Positions 27,679 to 52,834 of a stretch of DNA of 64,000 nucleotides are shown here, in pieces. The stretch's first letter is position 1; the number at the start of each line of letters is the position of its first letter. The stretch is taken from positions 2,080,001-2,144,000 of the forward strand of contig OY969474.1 in assembly GCA_963700145.1 (NCBI GenBank), in the 5' to 3' direction. The notes beneath the pieces were generated by a model that saw only the letters and a list, made by a program, of their open reading frames with translations, was not told where the DNA came from and made no database searches. The stretch comes from an uncultured Acidobacteriota bacterium. Lineage in GTDB: Bacteria; Acidobacteriota; Thermoanaerobaculia; Multivoradales; UBA5704. Both the position numbers and the translations under genes were made by a program.

Positions 27679-30180
27679 CTACTCGATGCGGGCGCGGAGC
27701 GCCGCCAAGTGGGCGGCGTACTTCTCCGAGTCGGGATGGCCGATCGATCGCTCGTAGTCGACCAGGACCTGCATGAGGTCGGCGGCACGGGCTAGGTCGC
27801 CTTCCTGCTCGTAGATCAGGCCGGAGTACCAGCAGGTGTTGGCCTCGCCGACCCGGTCGCCGATTTCGCGCGCGATGGCGCGCGCCTGTTCGTAGTGCTC
27901 GATCGCGCGTCGCGGCTCCCCGAGATCCGCGTAGGCGAGGCCCAGGTTGCCTAGGGCCGTGCCCTCCCCGTGCCGGTCGCCGATCCCGCGATCGATCACG
28001 AGCGCCTGCTCGTAGTGCTCGATCGCGCGCCGCGGCTCCCCGAGATCCGCGTAGGCGAGGCCCAGGTTGCCCAGGGTGGCGCCCTCCCCGTGCCGGTCGC
28101 CAATCTCGCGATCGATCACGAGCGCCTGCTCGTAGTGCTCGATCGCGCGCCGCGGCTCCTCGAGATTCGCGTAGGCGAGGCCCAGGTTACCCAGGGCGTT
28201 GCCCTCCCCACGCCGGTCGCCGATCTCGCGGACGATGGCGAGCTGACGCTCGTAGAGTTCGATCGCACGCCGCGGCTCCCCGAGATCCTTGTAGGCGATG
28301 CCCAGGTTGCCCAGGGCGCTGCCCTCCCCACGCCGGTAGCCGATCTCGCGCATGATAACGAGGTCTTGCTCGAAGTGGTCGATCGCGCACCGCGGCTCCC
28401 CGAGATCCACGTAGGCGAGGCCCAGGTTGCCGAGATGATTGCCCTCCGCCTTGCGGTCCTGCCCGCTGCGGGCGGCCGCGAGGGCGGAGTCCAGCCAAGC
28501 GATCTGTTCGCGCGGATGGAGGCGGAGGGAGAGGCAGTAGACCCCGGCATCGGGGTAGTCGCTGCATAGGCCCCCCGCCTGGGTGTCCTCGGCGGCGCGC
28601 GCGGCGGCCCAGGACTGCCCGGCCTTGACGTTCCCCCACTCGGCATCGAAGAGGGCCAGGCCGGCGAGCAAGGAGGCGCCCCCCTTGAGGTAAAGGTCGC
28701 TCGTGTCGCTCAGCACGCGCTCATAGTGAACGGAGTGTCGGCGTCGGGCTGACTCGCGCTCGGTGCCGCTCAGGTGGGAATCAGCGAAGACGCGGGCGAG
28801 GTCGTGGAGGCGGTAGCGCTCGCCCTCGTACTCGACGAGGCTCGCACCGATCAGCTCGCCCAGCGCGTCACGAGCCGAATCGACTTCCACCTCCCACACC
28901 GCCGCGGCGCCGGCGGCGTCGAAGCTGCCGGGGAAAACGGCGAGCCGACGCCAGCGTTTGCGCTGCTTTTTGTTGAGGAGGTCGTAGCTGGTGGCGAGGG
29001 AAGCCTCGATTAAACCGAGGCGCTCACCCTTGGTCTCCGTAAGCCGGTTGGCGTAATCGCCCGGGGAGAGCCACGCCTTCTCTGCAAGCGCGCTGCCGGC
29101 GAGACGGAGGGCGAGCGGGAGGCGGCCGCAGAGGGCCGCGACCTGCTCCGCCGCCTCGCCGATCCGCGGAGCGACGCTTCGCAGGAGGGCTTCAGCGTCG
29201 TCTTGGGGCAGCTCGTCGAGATCCTTGGTGACGATCCCCGGCAGGGCGAAGTGGAACCGCGACGTGACGAGCAGAGTGCAACCGGCAGGCGGGATCAGCG
29301 GCTCGACCTGCTGGCGGTTTGCGGCGTTGTCCATCAGCAGGAGGACGCGCTGGCCATGGAGCACCGAGAAGTAGAGCCCCGCCAGCGCTTCTTCCCCTTC
29401 AGGGAGCTGAGCAGTGGGATGGTAGGCGCGGATGACGTGCGCCATTGCCTGCGCGGTCGTGAGCGGCTGCTGGCTCACACCCTTCAAGTCGAGATAAAGC
29501 TGCGCGTCCGGATACAGCGGCTCGAGTTCCTCGGCGAGCCTGAGCGCGAGCGCCGTCTTGCCGATACCGCCCGCGCCGCGAAGGCCGGAGATGGTCGCGC
29601 CGCCCGCGCGCAGCGCCTCCCGTAGATCCGCCAACTCCTGCTCGCGGCCTGTGAAGTCGCCGGGCGGCGGTGGAATCTGGTGTAGGGGCTGGGGTAGGGC
29701 AGACGGTGGAGAGATCGGCTGGCGGAGGGCCTTGCCCTCGATGAGCTCGAGCACCTCCTCGGCGATCTTCACCAACTCACTGTCGCGCTGGTCGCTCCTG
29801 AAGGTGGCGAGAGGCTTGCCACCCTTCGGTCGCACGTGCATTGCCGCGAGCCACGGCACTTGCTTCCAAGTGCAGGCTTTGACGATCACGGGAAGGATGT
29901 GGACGCCTTCTTTGGCGCGCCGCTCGAGGAGTCGTTCGACCTCGACGTCGAGGATGAAGTTGGAGGTCAGAAAATCCGCCGAGACCAAAAGCACGGCGAC
30001 CTGCGCGCCTTCCAGCGCCGAGCGGATCTCTTCGCGCCAGTCCGCTCCGCCGCCGATGCGGCGGTCGTCCCAGGTCTCCAGCCGGCCTTGCCGCTCGAGG
30101 ACGGCAAGGTGAGATCTCAGACGCTCCATCCAGACCTCGTCCTCGTGGCTGTAGCTCAGGAACACGCTCGGTCCAGGCAT
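27679..30180 (-). CDS. TIR - NB-ARC (STAND NTPase) - TPR NLR-like protein
   Basis: TIR (VFLSYSHED...WDD..I..G...SxFI...E); Walker A GAGGIGKT; Walker B LLLMDNA; CGRLPLAL; YRLHDL; about six 40-aa TPRs. Confidence 0.93.
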   Translation of the reverse strand: MPGPSVFLSYSHEDEVWMERLRSHLAVLERQGRLETWDDRRIGGGADWREEIRSALEGAQVAVLLVSADFLTSNFILDVEVERLLERRAKEGVHILPVIVKACTWKQVPWLAAMHVRPKGGKPLATFRSDQRDSELVKIAEEVLELIEGKALRQPISPPSALPQPLHQIPPPPGDFTGREQELADLREALRAGGATISGLRGAGGIGKTALALRLAEELEPLYPDAQLYLDLKGVSQQPLTTAQAMAHVIRAYHPTAQLPEGEEALAGLYFSVLHGQRVLLLMDNAANRQQVEPLIPPAGCTLLVTSRFHFALPGIVTKDLDELPQDDAEALLRSVAPRIGEAAEQVAALCGRLPLALRLAGSALAEKAWLSPGDYANRLTETKGERLGLIEASLATSYDLLNKKQRKRWRRLAVFPGSFDAAGAAAVWEVEVDSARDALGELIGASLVEYEGERYRLHDLARVFADSHLSGTERESARRRHSVHYERVLSDTSDLYLKGGASLLAGLALFDAEWGNVKAGQSWAAARAAEDTQAGGLCSDYPDAGVYCLSLRLHPREQIAWLDSALAAARSGQDRKAEGNHLGNLGLAYVDLGEPRCAIDHFEQDLVIMREIGYRRGEGSALGNLGIAYKDLGEPRRAIELYERQLAIVREIGDRRGEGNALGNLGLAYANLEEPRRAIEHYEQALVIDREIGDRHGEGATLGNLGLAYADLGEPRRAIEHYEQALVIDRGIGDRHGEGTALGNLGLAYADLGEPRRAIEHYEQARAIAREIGDRVGEANTCWYSGLIYEQEGDLARAADLMQVLVDYERSIGHPDSEKYAAHLAALRARIE

Positions 30181-49515: not shown

Positions 49516-50198
49516 CGGAGGTAACCCGCCTCTGGGGCATCCGCCTGCTGGCGCTCGCCATCGCCGTGGCGATCTGGTTCAGCGTCTCGCTCGACGAGCG
49601 GCGGAAGCTGTCGGAGAAGGTCGTCGAGGCGAGCGTCAGCTACAACCGGCCGCGCGGCATGATCATCCTCGACCCGGTGGGGACCGTCGAGGTGCGGCTG
49701 CGCGGCACCGAGCGGGCGATCCGCCAGCTCAACCCCGACCTGGTGGACGTGGAGATCAACCTGGCGCGCACTCCCGAAGGCCAGGTCACCGTGCCGCTGG
49801 GCCCGGACGACGTGCTGACGCCCGACGGCCTGGAGGTCGTCTCCATCCGTCCCAACGCCATCCGCGTCGAGCTCGACCGCGAGATCACGCGGCGCGTGCC
49901 GGTCGAGCCGGTGCTGGTCGGCGAGCCGGCCGCGGGCGCGACGGTCGGCCCGCCGGAGGTCCTCCCCAACCAGGTGCAGGTGACCGGGCCCGAGTCGCTG
50001 CTCAGCCGCCTGCGCTCGCTGCCGACGGCGCCGATCGGCCTCGACGGCCACGCCGTCCCCTTCGACGTGCTGGTGGCGGTCGAGGCGCCCGACCCGCTGA
50101 TCCAGATCGTGCCGCCGTCGCGGGTCAGCGTGCACGTGCCGATGACCCCGCCCGAGATCCGCCCCGACGCCCTGCGCAGCGAGCCGGACGAGCGGTGA
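49512..50198 (+). CDS. cdaR: CdaR/YbbR-domain protein
   Basis: N-terminal TM (LLALAIAVAIW), V.V.LRG, P..V.V.GP; synteny. Confidence 0.88.
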   Translation: MTEVTRLWGIRLLALAIAVAIWFSVSLDERRKLSEKVVEASVSYNRPRGMIILDPVGTVEVRLRGTERAIRQLNPDLVDVEINLARTPEGQVTVPLGPDDVLTPDGLEVVSIRPNAIRVELDREITRRVPVEPVLVGEPAAGATVGPPEVLPNQVQVTGPESLLSRLRSLPTAPIGLDGHAVPFDVLVAVEAPDPLIQIVPPSRVSVHVPMTPPEIRPDALRSEPDER

Positions 50199-51541
50199 GC
50201 GGCCGCCTCTTCGGCACCGACGGCATCCGCGCCCCCTTCGGCGAGCCACCGCTCGACCGCGCGACCGTCACGGCGGTGGGGCGGGCGCTCGCCGCGACGC
50301 TGCACGACGAAGGGCGGGAGACGACGGTCGTCCTCGGCGGCGACACGCGCGAGAGCACGCCGGCGCTGTGCCGCTGGCTGGCCTCCGGGCTCGCTGCCGG
50401 CGGCGTCGCCACGCTCTACGGCGGCGTCGTCCCGACGCCCGGCGTCGCGTACCTCACGCGGCGGCGGGGCGCCGGGGCGGGCGTCGTCGTCTCGGCGAGC
50501 CACAACCCCTACCCCGACAACGGCATCAAGCTGATCGACGGCGACGGCTTCAAGTGGAGCGAGGCGGCGGAGGCGGCGCTGGAGGAGCGGATCGAAGACC
50601 GGATGGGTGAGAAGGACGGGGCGGCGGAATCGCCGCTCGCCGAGGACCCCTCACTCCGCGAGGAGTACCTGGCGCACCTCGCGGACAGCGTCCCCGGCGA
50701 TCGGCCGCTGGCCGGCCTGGCGGTCGTGCTCGACGCCGGCAACGGCGCCACCTCGGCCTACGCCGAGGAGGCGTTCGCGCGCCTCGGGGCGCGCACCACC
50801 CTCCTCCACGCCGCCCCCGACGGCCGCAACGTCAACGCGAGGTGCGGCTCGACGGTGCCGGACGAGATGGCGGCGGCGGTGCCGGCCGCCGGCGCCGACC
50901 TCGGCGCCGCCTTCGACGGCGACGGCGACCGCTGCATCCTGGCCGACGAGACCGGTGCGGTGCGCGACGGCGACGCCATCCTCTACCTCTGGGGCACCGC
51001 CCTCGCCGCCCGCGGCGAGCTCGAGCCGCGCAAGGTGGTGGCCACCTCGATGAGCAACCTCGGTCTCGAGCGGGCGCTCGCCCGCGAGGGGATCGAGCTG
51101 CTGCGCACCGGCGTCGGCGACCGGCTGGTCGTCGAGGCAATGCGGCGGGAGGGGGTCCGGCTCGGCGGCGAGCAGTCCGGGCACGTCGTCGAGACGTCGC
51201 TCGCCACGACCGGCGACGGGCTGCTGACGGCGCTGCAGATCGCGCGGCTGGTGCGCGAGTCCGGGCAGCCCCTGTCGCGGCTCCTGGCCGGCTTCCGCCG
51301 CTACCCGCAGGTGCTGCTCAACGTCCGCGTGGCGCGCAAGCCGGACCTCGCGACCGTGCCCCGCGTCGCCGCCGCCGTCCGCGCCGCCGAGGAGACCCTC
51401 GGCGCCGACGGCCGCCTAGTCCTCCGCTACAGCGGCACCGAGCCCCTAGCCCGCGTCATGATCGAAGGCCCCGAACAGGCCGAGATCGACGCCTTGGCCG
51501 GCACGATCGCCGGCGCCATCCGCGACGAGCTGGGAGCCTGA
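50195..51541 (+). CDS. glmM: Phosphoglucosamine mutase
   Basis: FGTDGIR, SASHNP, FDGDGDR, GGEQSGH, RYSGTEP. Confidence 0.97.
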   Translation: MSGRLFGTDGIRAPFGEPPLDRATVTAVGRALAATLHDEGRETTVVLGGDTRESTPALCRWLASGLAAGGVATLYGGVVPTPGVAYLTRRRGAGAGVVVSASHNPYPDNGIKLIDGDGFKWSEAAEAALEERIEDRMGEKDGAAESPLAEDPSLREEYLAHLADSVPGDRPLAGLAVVLDAGNGATSAYAEEAFARLGARTTLLHAAPDGRNVNARCGSTVPDEMAAAVPAAGADLGAAFDGDGDRCILADETGAVRDGDAILYLWGTALAARGELEPRKVVATSMSNLGLERALAREGIELLRTGVGDRLVVEAMRREGVRLGGEQSGHVVETSLATTGDGLLTALQIARLVRESGQPLSRLLAGFRRYPQVLLNVRVARKPDLATVPRVAAAVRAAEETLGADGRLVLRYSGTEPLARVMIEGPEQAEIDALAGTIAGAIRDELGA

Positions 51542-51550
51542 CGGCGCCGC

Positions 51551-51737
51551 CGGGACCGTCGCCTGCGGCAGGCGACGGTCGTTTGCGGCAGATGACCGTC
51601 GTTTACTCTAGACGACCGTCGTGTGTAGTAGACTACCGTCGCTCAGTACAGATGATAGTCGTCTGGAGTAAACTACCGTCGTTTAGGCCAAACGACGGTC
51701 GCCCGGCTCAAACGACCGTCGTCCGGAGCAGACGACC
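51551..51737. repeat. Array of about 9.5 units at exact 20-bp period: 15-bp palindrome (AGACGAC-C-GTCGTYT) plus 5-nt variable spacer
   Basis: Invariant GTCG at 51558+20n (n=0-8) and invariant A at 51570+20n. Confidence 0.93.
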
Positions 51738-52130
51738 ATGACCATGCGCGGAATCAACTCCTTGGCCGACAAGCTCAAGCTCTGGCAGCAGCTCCGCGCC
51801 GGCACCGGCCGCCTTCTCGACGACCTCCCCCACCTGCGCCCGGAGGTCACGACGTTCGAGACGGAGCTGCGGGACCTCGTGGCGATCGACGAGGAGCACG
51901 CCGCGACGACCGCCCGCCTGCGCGAGCTGACCCGCCGCCGCGCCGAGGCCCAGGTCCGCGTTCGTGGCCTGCGAAACCGCATCGCCGCGACGCTCCAAGG
52001 CCACTACGGCCCAGAGAGCGACACCCTGATCGAATACGGTATAGCCCCCCGCCGCCGCCGCCCGCGCCGCAAACCGGAGCCGGAGACCCCCACTATCTCC
52101 GAAGTACCTACCGAGCCGGTCGAGGAGTAG
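51738..52130 (+). CDS. Uncharacterised coiled-coil protein with basic C-terminal tail
   Basis: LPHL, long amphipathic helices, HYGPESDTLIEYGIAP followed by RRRRPRRK; GGAG 10 nt upstream. Confidence 0.8.
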   Translation: MTMRGINSLADKLKLWQQLRAGTGRLLDDLPHLRPEVTTFETELRDLVAIDEEHAATTARLRELTRRRAEAQVRVRGLRNRIAATLQGHYGPESDTLIEYGIAPRRRRPRRKPEPETPTISEVPTEPVEE

Positions 52131-52208: not shown

Positions 52209-52424
52209 ATGAGCGTGCGCAAAACCAGCGTCGAGATCAACGAGGACCTCCTGCAGGAGGCCCAACGGGTGCTTTCGACGACGACCATCAAGGACACTAT
52301 CGAGGAAGCCCTCCGCGAGGTCCTGCGCGTGGAAGCTCGGCGTGAGGAGATCGAAGCGCTCTCGGCGATGCGCGGAATGGACCTCGCCGATCCGGAGGTG
52401 ATGTCCGGGGCCTGGCGCCCGTGA
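52209..52424 (+). CDS. vapB: VapB-type antitoxin (RHH)
   Basis: RKTSVEINEDLLQEA...TTIKDTIEEALR; overlaps the PIN gene. Confidence 0.88.
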   Translation: MSVRKTSVEINEDLLQEAQRVLSTTTIKDTIEEALREVLRVEARREEIEALSAMRGMDLADPEVMSGAWRP

Positions 52425-52834
52425 GGGCGCGGTACCTCGTAGACAAGAGCGCGCTGGCGCGGATGCCGCTCGAGCCGGTGCGCGAGGTGCTGGCGCCGAT
52501 CATCGACGCCGGCGAGGCCGCCACCTGCGCCATCATCGATTTGGAAGTTCTCTTCAGTGCCAGGAACCGCGAGGACCACGATCGCATCCGCGAGCGCCGC
52601 GCCCTCGCCTACCACTCGGTGCCGATTACCGAGGAGATTTTCCAGCGAGCGATCGCGATCCAGTCCGCGCTCGCCCGCAGCGGCCGCCACCGGGTGCCGA
52701 TCCCGGACCTGATCATCGCCGCCACCGCGGAAGCCGCCGAGCTGGTGTTACTGCACTACGACCACGACTATGACGTTATCGCCGAGGTAACCGGGCAGCG
52801 CGCGGAGTGGGTCGTCGAGCGCGGCGTGCTCTAG
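52421..52834 (+). CDS. vapC: VapC PIN-domain toxin
   Basis: YLVDKSA, LE.L.S, DLIIAATA, LHYD.DYD. Confidence 0.92.
   Translation: MRARYLVDKSALARMPLEPVREVLAPIIDAGEAATCAIIDLEVLFSARNREDHDRIRERRALAYHSVPITEEIFQRAIAIQSALARSGRHRVPIPDLIIAATAEAAELVLLHYDHDYDVIAEVTGQRAEWVVERGVL

Follow-up and report, generated by a model that had tools for sequence, protein, structure and literature searches.

Phased arrays of 20- and 21-bp units recur beside genes for a small, predicted coiled-coil protein family in a Thermoanaerobaculia lineage

We analysed a stretch of 64,000 nucleotides (contig OY969474.1, positions 2,080,001 to 2,144,000; hereafter the window) from an uncultured Acidobacteriota bacterium, in which a row of palindromic units with an exact 20-bp period stands directly ahead of a gene for a 130-aa protein. 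The array and the gene are linked well beyond this locus, the array belongs to a genome-wide family, the two are distributed together among related genomes, and the window copy is present in some relatives and missing from the same site in others. The explanation that we favour, tentatively and on the evidence of sequence, is that each array is a phased double-stranded DNA (dsDNA) site array, one of a dispersed and proliferating family, coupled to a coiled-coil dimer that would act on the architecture of the array and not on the sequence of its units.

The source genome (G000) is a single contig of 5.46 Mb. It holds 15 paralogues of the 130-aa open reading frame (ORF), at 24-48% identity, and a profile search of all six-frame ORFs returned exactly 16 members; the linked gene products are 125-141 aa long. 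In 15 of the 16, an array detectable with Tandem Repeats Finder (TRF) lies directly 5' of the start codon, 16-128 bp away, and the sixteenth shows a degenerate four-unit 21-bp periodicity that is visible by eye only. These arrays have a period of 20 bp at two loci and of 21 bp at the rest, with about 6-15 units each, and all 16 genes have an AGGAG/GGAGG-type ribosome-binding site (RBS) 6-9 nt ahead of the start codon. When genes were called with a positional-GC model (4198 genes, covering 84% of the genome, so that some "intergenic" labels and gene distances are approximate), 14 of the 16 family members adjoined an array with the start codon facing it (15 by TRF); among all 4198 called genes, 53 had a start-facing array within 150 bp. 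This family of predicted helical hairpins is the most enriched gene family among the called array neighbours. In other genomes, a TRF-detectable array accompanies 26 of 45 distinct homologue genes (17 upstream, 9 downstream) within the ≤1.5 kb examined per side, three duplicate loci having been removed beforehand. The proposal that array and ORF form a recurrent genetic pair, made in an original prediction from the letters of the window, is thus borne out.

The unit itself differs at every paralogue locus (for example GGAGATCGATCTCC, CCGTTACGGTAACGG, GGAAGCTTCC, GGATGTATCC and GTACGCTTGTAC). The original prediction had proposed, as a check, to ask whether the unit co-varies with protein clade. 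Over 105 paralogue pairs in the source genome protein similarity and unit similarity were uncorrelated (Spearman 0.09, p 0.35); even among the three paralogues most alike in sequence (73-78% identical), the units agree at 10-11 of 21 positions, no better than the null mean of 11.05. Orthologues keep their unit class: this holds for the window ORF and a homologue in the relative G002 that is 55% identical to it, and for paralogue p1 and its orthologue in G004. Because protein similarity fails to predict the unit, the protein is not the reader that keeps the unit cores constant.

Around one subfamily of the small gene the neighbourhood forms a cassette, found at G000:C1 ~3106287-3106709 and at four similar loci (3889926, 3204348, 3387763 and 2032990). 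It comprises proteins with an N-terminal Cys/His motif and TPRs, a divergent gene for an XRE-type helix-turn-helix (HTH) protein (PF01381), and a short pterin-4a/DCoH-like protein that ends just ahead of the array; proteins of 137, 315, 247 and 204 aa, with no Pfam match, follow the small gene.

At the window locus, the following features were recognised.

50198 to 51541, plus strand: glmM (phosphoglucosamine mutase), from the ORF list; orthologues 81-94% identical in the relatives G001, G002 and G004.
51551 to 51744, no strand: array of ten units, nine of them full and the last partial, exact 20-bp period; left end of a 1.3-kb insertion.
51725 to 51728, plus strand: GGAG ribosome-binding site within the last linker, from sequence inspection.
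51738 to 52130, plus strand: 130-aa gene of the unannotated helical-hairpin family, from its coding signature, the 16-member family, and fold and dimer models.
52209 to 52424, plus strand: vapB-type antitoxin gene (PF09957, E 3.4e-07), part of the inserted block.
52421 to 52834, plus strand: PIN-domain (vapC-type) toxin gene (PF01850, E 4.8e-10), right end of the inserted block.

Each unit of the window array consists of a 15-bp dyad core (consensus AGACGAC-C-GTCGTYT) and a 5-nt variable linker, arranged head to tail, the linkers being, in order, GCGGC, GCGGC, ACTCT, GTAGT, AGTAC, GGAGT, AGGCC, GGCTC and GGAGC. TRF reports a period of 20 (and 40) with 0% indels over 51554-51737, and conservation along the unit, position by position, reads 77986999975666356969. 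With ≤2 mismatches, the core ACGACCGTCGT matches 56 times in the window, as compared with 33.6 ± 6.7 times in shuffled sequences, none of 100 shuffles reaching 56; 14 of the 56 matches fall inside the array. The glmM frame stops at 51541, 9 bp ahead of the first unit, so that the space from there to the ORF is taken up by the array. The last partial unit runs into the start ATG (51738-51740), with the GGAG 9 nt ahead of it, and the hexamers TAGACT and TAAACT occur in the array. All of these details, from unit count, period and linker list to the occupied gap, the RBS, the junction with the ATG and the two hexamers, are as originally described. The ORF has a coding signature (GC content at codon positions 1/2/3 of 0.73/0.50/0.89) that is normal for a 71.5% GC genome. 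No consensus promoter or terminator was detected between glmM and the ORF in the window, for which reason the array is probably transcribed and part of the mRNA; judging from the sequence, it probably sits inside a glmM-to-ORF transcription unit and provides the RBS of the ORF. In another part of the window, 27853-28431, there is a tandem repeat with a 120-bp period (4.8 copies, 86% matches), which, from its minus-strand unit translation, is probably a coding TPR-like repeat.

A TRF search of the whole source genome gave 224 tandem-repeat regions of at least 80 bp, and 154 of them have a base period of 20 or 21 bp or a multiple thereof. Removal of 19 regions lying almost wholly inside called genes left 135 arrays. 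Slicing into units was feasible for 130, of which 112 have period 21 and 18 period 20, with a median of 9 units and a maximum of 25; a few of the 130 are doubtful, being GC-only low-complexity stretches or belonging to a distinct family of 42-bp elements. Conservation of at least 85% is seen at a median of 10 of the 20-21 positions within arrays, while the other positions drift, and many consensus units are dyadic (at least 7 of 10 pairs). Single-linkage clustering on shared 9-mers yielded at least 25 unit classes that recur at 2-15 loci, the class of the window recurring at 159123 and 1252622. A one-to-one pairing of paralogues with classes was considered and dropped: classes defined in this way chain together, and several of them have no paralogue beside any member array. 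The original prediction had also named the genome-wide occurrence of the same 20-mer array independently of the gene as a finding that would refute it. About 115 intergenic arrays of the same architecture indeed have no small gene beside them, which in part counts against that prediction. Array GC is 65.3%, against 65.7% in other intergenic DNA of the source genome, and on these figures we rejected the idea of arrays as AT-rich silencer targets. Outside the 20/21-bp family, a separate dispersed element with a 42-bp unit (AACCGCGTAGGTTGAGGAC...) was noted at G000:C1 32886, 409618, 409768, 1365071 and 1929398, with about 250 bp of conserved flanks at 73-95% identity.

Some arrays have higher-order periods of 42 and 63 bp, indicating block duplications, which would suit functionless, neutral minisatellites produced by replication slippage. 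This origin was already disfavoured, and we regard it as very improbable: conservation is position-specific, the same classes occur in several genera, a single period serves unrelated units, linkage to one gene family is tight, and unit number is stable between relatives. The array of p1 is collinear, unit for unit, in the congener G004 (by eye). A relative about 94% identical, from an independent run, carries the window array ungapped on one contig across 51548-51773, with 14 differences; this comparison rests on contigs, and parts of the stretch are uncovered in some runs.

Of 24 other genomes from the taxonomic family to which the source belongs (f1), 22 contain the protein family, in up to 38-39 copies; it was found in none of 16 genomes from other families of the order or of 200 further genomes of the phylum. 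A library of 1.84 billion proteins contained 1312 family representatives at E ≤0.001, and a search with a five-row sub-alignment gave five loci in Thermoanaerobaculia metagenome-assembled genomes. Array density was sampled over 400 kb from each of six related genomes, counting tandem-repeat regions of at least 100 bp.

G000 (source genome): 16 family copies; 9-13 regions of the 20/21 type per 400 kb.
G010: 38 family matches; 16 of 16 tandem-repeat regions of the 20/21 type.
G006: 6 family matches; about 5 regions of period 20.
G022 (same family): no family copies; a mixture of regions with 22-, 24- and 27-bp periods, two regions being purely 21-based.
G031 (other family): no family copies; repetitive extragenic palindrome (REP)-like units at 27-59 bp spacing.
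G034 (other family): no family copies; REP-like 63-bp units with no 21-bp sub-period.

The REP-like element of G031 is GGGTGCGCCGGCGTCCCCGCCGGC and the 63-bp unit of G034 is CGTCCCCTTCCCCCCCGTGGGGAGGGAAGGGGATCGAGGGGA. One unit of the 20/21-bp family, GGAAGCTTCC at 21-bp spacing, occurs in 16 of the 24 genomes of the same taxonomic family, spanning eight genera, and gave 0 matches in both family genomes that have no copy of the protein. Outside the family, 2 of 16 genomes gave one match each, which is the level of a reversed-pattern control (0-2). The unit class of the window was found solely in its own genus, with 25 matches in G000, 20 in G002, 5 in G004, 2 in G003 and 0 in G001.

By sequence, the 130-aa protein has no relative in Pfam, NCBIfam, PHROGs or the Protein Data Bank (PDB), and a Foldseek search of its model against the PDB gave a best E-value of 4.2. 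Its look-alikes in the Atlas are "hypothetical protein" clusters from Acidobacteriota. The AlphaFold2 model (predicted local distance difference test, pLDDT, 86.6) consists of a helix at residues 9-29, a 60-residue helix at 31-90 and a short helix at 95-100, without any strand, and ends in a basic, Pro-containing tail that is of low confidence or disordered. Model and sequence agree with the long helical hairpin, the motif GHYGPESDTLIEYGIAP and the basic tail noted at the outset. Prediction as a homodimer gave an interaction score (ipSAE) of 0.78 in three runs, as compared with 0.00 for the best control, with pLDDT of at least 89 and at least 88% of contacts in agreement; of proteins with solved structures, 20 of 30 homo-pairs but also 1 of 23 single chains attain that mark, counts that hold only roughly here since our own alignment was used. 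In the predicted dimer the long helices run antiparallel, with the axis near residues 57-61, and the modelling supports self-association as an antiparallel coiled-coil homodimer. All 16 paralogues have 6-10 Arg/Lys residues between positions 55 and 90, with an invariant R62, and all have a basic cluster after an invariant Pro104, the rest of the tail being often acidic and Pro-rich.

Whether such arrays work as DNA or as RNA can be judged from the pattern of variation in their arms. The original prediction had read several window units as hairpins with compensatory changes and had offered, as one option, a multi-hairpin RNA partner for the protein. In that case the array would be transcribed as part of the ORF's 5' leader and would fold, across its linkers, into hairpins of 7-9 bp, to be bound by an Arg-rich helix. 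The lack of a promoter or terminator consensus ahead of the ORF, which places the array probably in the mRNA, agrees with this, as do a folding z-score of -7.0 for the window array and the presence of an Arg-rich helix at residues 60-81 of the protein. However, the opposite strand folds comparably (z -6.3), many units, such as GGAAGCTTCC, leave no loop, and arrays are found in every orientation and behind terminators. Moreover, the arms of the window array pair in 42 of 56 cases within the unit, in 37 of 49 where they face each other over a linker, and in 60 of 84 when non-adjacent; since non-adjacent arms pair about as often, the "compensatory" pairs are not above background. In arrays with clear dyads, arm complementarity is 0.74-0.75 within the unit, 0.73-0.75 across the linker and 0.73-0.74 in non-adjacent controls, and G-U is about as frequent as A-C. 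The 15 gene-linked arrays, oriented by the gene, show the same lack of an adjacent-arm excess and no sense-strand excess of G-U (G-U 0.044-0.069, A-C 0.053-0.066). With covariation, a G-U over A-C excess and strand preference all absent, we give the RNA reading little credence. No Rfam family fits the window array. Matches to MIR6136 at 51594-51680 on both strands (34.7 bits on plus, 33.1 on minus, gathering score 99) were rejected as an artefact of the long palindromic array.

Four features, namely the two-turn period, the conserved cores with drifting linkers, the age of the classes and the absence of hairpin covariation, point to a dsDNA element under sequence constraint, and we infer that the arrays function as such, rather than as RNA or as neutral minisatellites.

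The window locus is polymorphic among congeners. In G000 and G001, about 1.3 kb comprising the array, the ORF and vapBC lies between glmM and a convergent 71-aa gene (window 52848); in G002 and G004 the site is empty, the glmM stop being followed by the convergent 71-aa gene within 8-15 bp. The array occupies the extreme left end of the inserted block, and in this comparison (G000/G001 vs G002/G004) neither terminal inverted repeats nor target duplications were seen at the insertion. The G001 orthologue of the ORF (on G001:C593) is 87% identical, with about 1.5 array units left and the ATG missing at its expected place; the array junction there falls at a CGG microhomology, and the loss may be a real deletion or an assembly collapse. 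Within the same insertion, vapB and vapC, directly after the small gene, overlap by 4 bp, and many other arrays of the source genome likewise adjoin antitoxin or PIN genes.

Non-repeat flank homology with other arrays was found for 57 of the 115 gene-free arrays, and in 18 cases the homology is to the flanks of gene-linked arrays. A tblastn search of array flanks revealed short N-terminal remnants of the small gene beside three arrays; most matches of one query (p7) were artefactual, that query still holding translated array. The genes flanking the 135 arrays are tandem in 62 cases, convergent in 39 and divergent in 34, near random proportions. Among the neighbouring genes are those for IS256-like, IS3 and IS5 transposases, for PIN toxins and for numerous antitoxins, and in G015 identical 31-mers occur at 10 or more loci. 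As an aside, a 400-aa transposase of the IS256/Mutator type is present in about 28 copies in the source genome, and for ten of these an array is no more than two genes away. In G010 a near-identical block occurs twice, 26 kb apart (G010:C3 ~412300-413500 and 438000-439250), consisting of a promoter-like TTGACA..TAGTCT, the small gene, a terminator and a 400-bp array, which suggests a larger duplicated or mobile unit.

That classes recur with shared flanks, in random orientation, next to mobile genes and with insertion polymorphism shows that the arrays proliferate as dispersed repeats. The same observations, together with the gene remnants, the repeated 31-mers, the position of the array at the very end of the insertion and the recurrence of classes at 2-15 loci, would also be expected of selfish or structural dispersed repeats, similar to REPs and bacterial interspersed mosaic elements (BIMEs) or to miniature inverted-repeat transposable elements (MITEs), in which the gene is a hitch-hiker, a preferred landing site or a "master-copy" passenger and its product need not touch the array. 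We consider this unlikely, albeit worth keeping in view. The Y1 transposase of REPs (REP-associated tyrosine transposase, RAYT) is absent from the source genome (0 matches to PF01797, in a search whose control was positive in 6 of 14 reference genomes), and the insertion has no terminal inverted repeats or target duplications. Furthermore, a two-turn period across dozens of unrelated units, together with core conservation, demands more than copying, and copying leaves unexplained that 15 of 16 family members keep an array at 16-128 bp.

The random gene orientation at arrays does not look like promoter control. This bears on a further possibility, by which the array would be an operator or enhancer-like platform for a class-specific regulator encoded elsewhere, for example of the XRE HTH type, and the small gene its regulated target, with one paralogue per regulator. 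In this genus the arrays do abut the RBS with no sigma-70-like promoter between them, many cores are dyadic, which fits dimeric regulators, XRE HTH genes (PF01381) are divergent at 7 of the 16 paralogue loci, and a different class is found at each paralogue. Nonetheless, we think such a platform quite unlikely, as 39 arrays lie between convergent gene ends, the window locus, vapB aside, has no HTH gene, and 25 or more dedicated regulators would be implied, none of which has been pinpointed. In other genera, moreover, the array is found 3' of the gene and behind a terminator; in G010 and G016 the small gene is equipped with a promoter-like sequence and a terminator of its own, and the array comes after it. 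For this reason the simple autoregulatory operator of the original prediction is not general either.

Since linkage and co-distribution are tight but protein-unit covariation is absent, we propose a class-independent partner that reads architecture. In the explanation that we favour, an array would be a row of sites phased at two helical turns, which would place all sites on one side of the helix, and the arrays, about 130 in the source genome in 25 or more classes, would make up a lineage-specific, dispersed and proliferating family. The ORF product would be an elongated antiparallel coiled-coil dimer, encoded by a gene family genetically coupled to the arrays. We infer that the arrays are bound by protein, and by this protein in particular: using the conserved Arg/Lys stripe of its long helix, and the basic cluster that follows the conserved Pro, the dimer might contact the phased sites or whatever occupies them, and it might load with a preference for the array next to the gene that encodes it. 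Hypothetical class-specific readers would hold the unit cores constant.

Several observations weigh against this explanation. Arrays exceed genes by about 8 to 1, and their gene contexts are, as said, near random. The protein has no recognisable DNA-binding domain in Pfam, NCBIfam, PDB or fold searches, and in several paralogues the tail is acidic and rich in Pro and contains no more than a KK cluster. It cannot itself keep the cores constant, and the readers invoked for that role are hypothetical. Six genomes that have the protein family contain no GGAAGCTTCC arrays at 21-bp spacing, and co-distribution rests on six sampled, mutually related genomes. Finally, the G001 orthologue that has neither array nor ATG could mean that the array is dispensable, that this copy is decaying or that the region is misassembled. 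As a whole, then, the interpretation given in the original prediction is partly supported.

In the full texts of the papers searched, supplementary files excluded, we found no description of such arrays or of the protein family, nor are they described in a passage of PMC12306157. The combination of more than 100 two-helical-turn arrays with a coiled-coil family in one soil Acidobacteria lineage is previously undescribed and fits no known system. If the arrays are bound, they would constitute a natural library of orthogonal units, at least 25 in number and about 15 bp in length, for each of which a cognate reader presumably exists, and the protein family would be a compact one coupled to phased DNA arrays without reading their sequence. 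It becomes testable how more than 100 phased arrays are built, spread and kept up without a known transposase, and what role is played by a new class of small coiled-coil nucleoid or mobile-element protein. Even as selfish repeats, the arrays would represent a new kind of dispersed repeat, one that adheres strictly to a structural period, has a gene linked to it and occurs in a soil phylum that has received little study.

Among known systems, REP/BIME elements with their RAYT transposases come as hundreds of intergenic copies, in regularly spaced clusters of alternating orientation, with several classes per genome and a gene flanked by its own repeats. The 130-135 mostly intergenic arrays of the source genome, many with palindromic consensus units, resemble them. 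Passages of PMC2817692 and PMC3333891 describe REP/BIME elements as many copies of short palindromic units in extragenic DNA, and according to a passage of PMC3733652 the palindrome carries a GTAG or CGTC tag at one of its ends; PMC3116915 belongs to the same literature. The window unit contains CGTC/GACG. Unlike REP/BIME elements, the arrays have an exact 20/21-bp period, up to 25 units and at least 25 classes, and the linked gene encodes not a RAYT but a coiled-coil protein that does not co-vary with the class.

Iterons and centromere-like arrays, such as the 22-bp iterons of R6K, parC with ParR in R1 and pSK41, or sopC with SopB in F, are plasmid-borne, each replicon having its own unit. 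Here too there are tandem units of about 20-22 bp, with a conserved core and a variable linker, ahead of or behind the gene of a small protein (predicted here to be dimeric), and the direct repeats are phased at two turns as in an iteron origin, where they measure about 17-22 bp (in the window, period 20 without indels). Unlike in those systems, the arrays are chromosomal and number more than 100 per genome, and the unit is independent of the protein. No Rep initiator was recognised, the adjacent ORF having no relative in Pfam, NCBIfam or the PDB and the neighbours being glmM and vapBC. As modelled, the protein is all-helical, as opposed to the ribbon-helix-helix or winged-helix folds of ParR/parC-type systems, and ParA, ParM and TubZ did not appear among the recurrent neighbour families at the 16 loci, as far as the eight neighbour proteins scanned against Pfam can show.

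As in CRISPR and TIGR-Tas, a repeat with a variable linker stands beside a gene. The linkers, of 5-7 nt (5 nt in the window), are nevertheless far from guide-length spacers of about 25 nt or more, as the original prediction had rightly stated for CRISPR, and the units read equally on both strands. The source genome has no match to the Nop domain of TIGR-Tas effectors (PF01798), whose absence had also been noted, and no Argonaute-type Piwi protein.

Proteins of the H-NS/Lsr2/MvaT type are about 110-140 aa long, with an N-terminal coiled-coil oligomerisation part and a basic C-terminal part, and they occur as multiple paralogues, some on accessory DNA. The predicted coiled-coil self-association of the 130-aa protein would be akin to theirs, but its model lacks a folded DNA-binding domain at the C terminus, the paralogues number 16-39 per genome, and the arrays are not AT-richer than other intergenic DNA. 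Set beside these four kinds of system, the dozens of array classes (more than 100 arrays per genome) and the 16-39 array-adjacent dimers may possibly, though we say so with some doubt, form a hitherto unknown chromosome-wide system of one Thermoanaerobaculia family, a self-propagating or DNA-organising nucleoprotein distinct from REP/RAYT, iteron/partition, CRISPR and H-NS alike.

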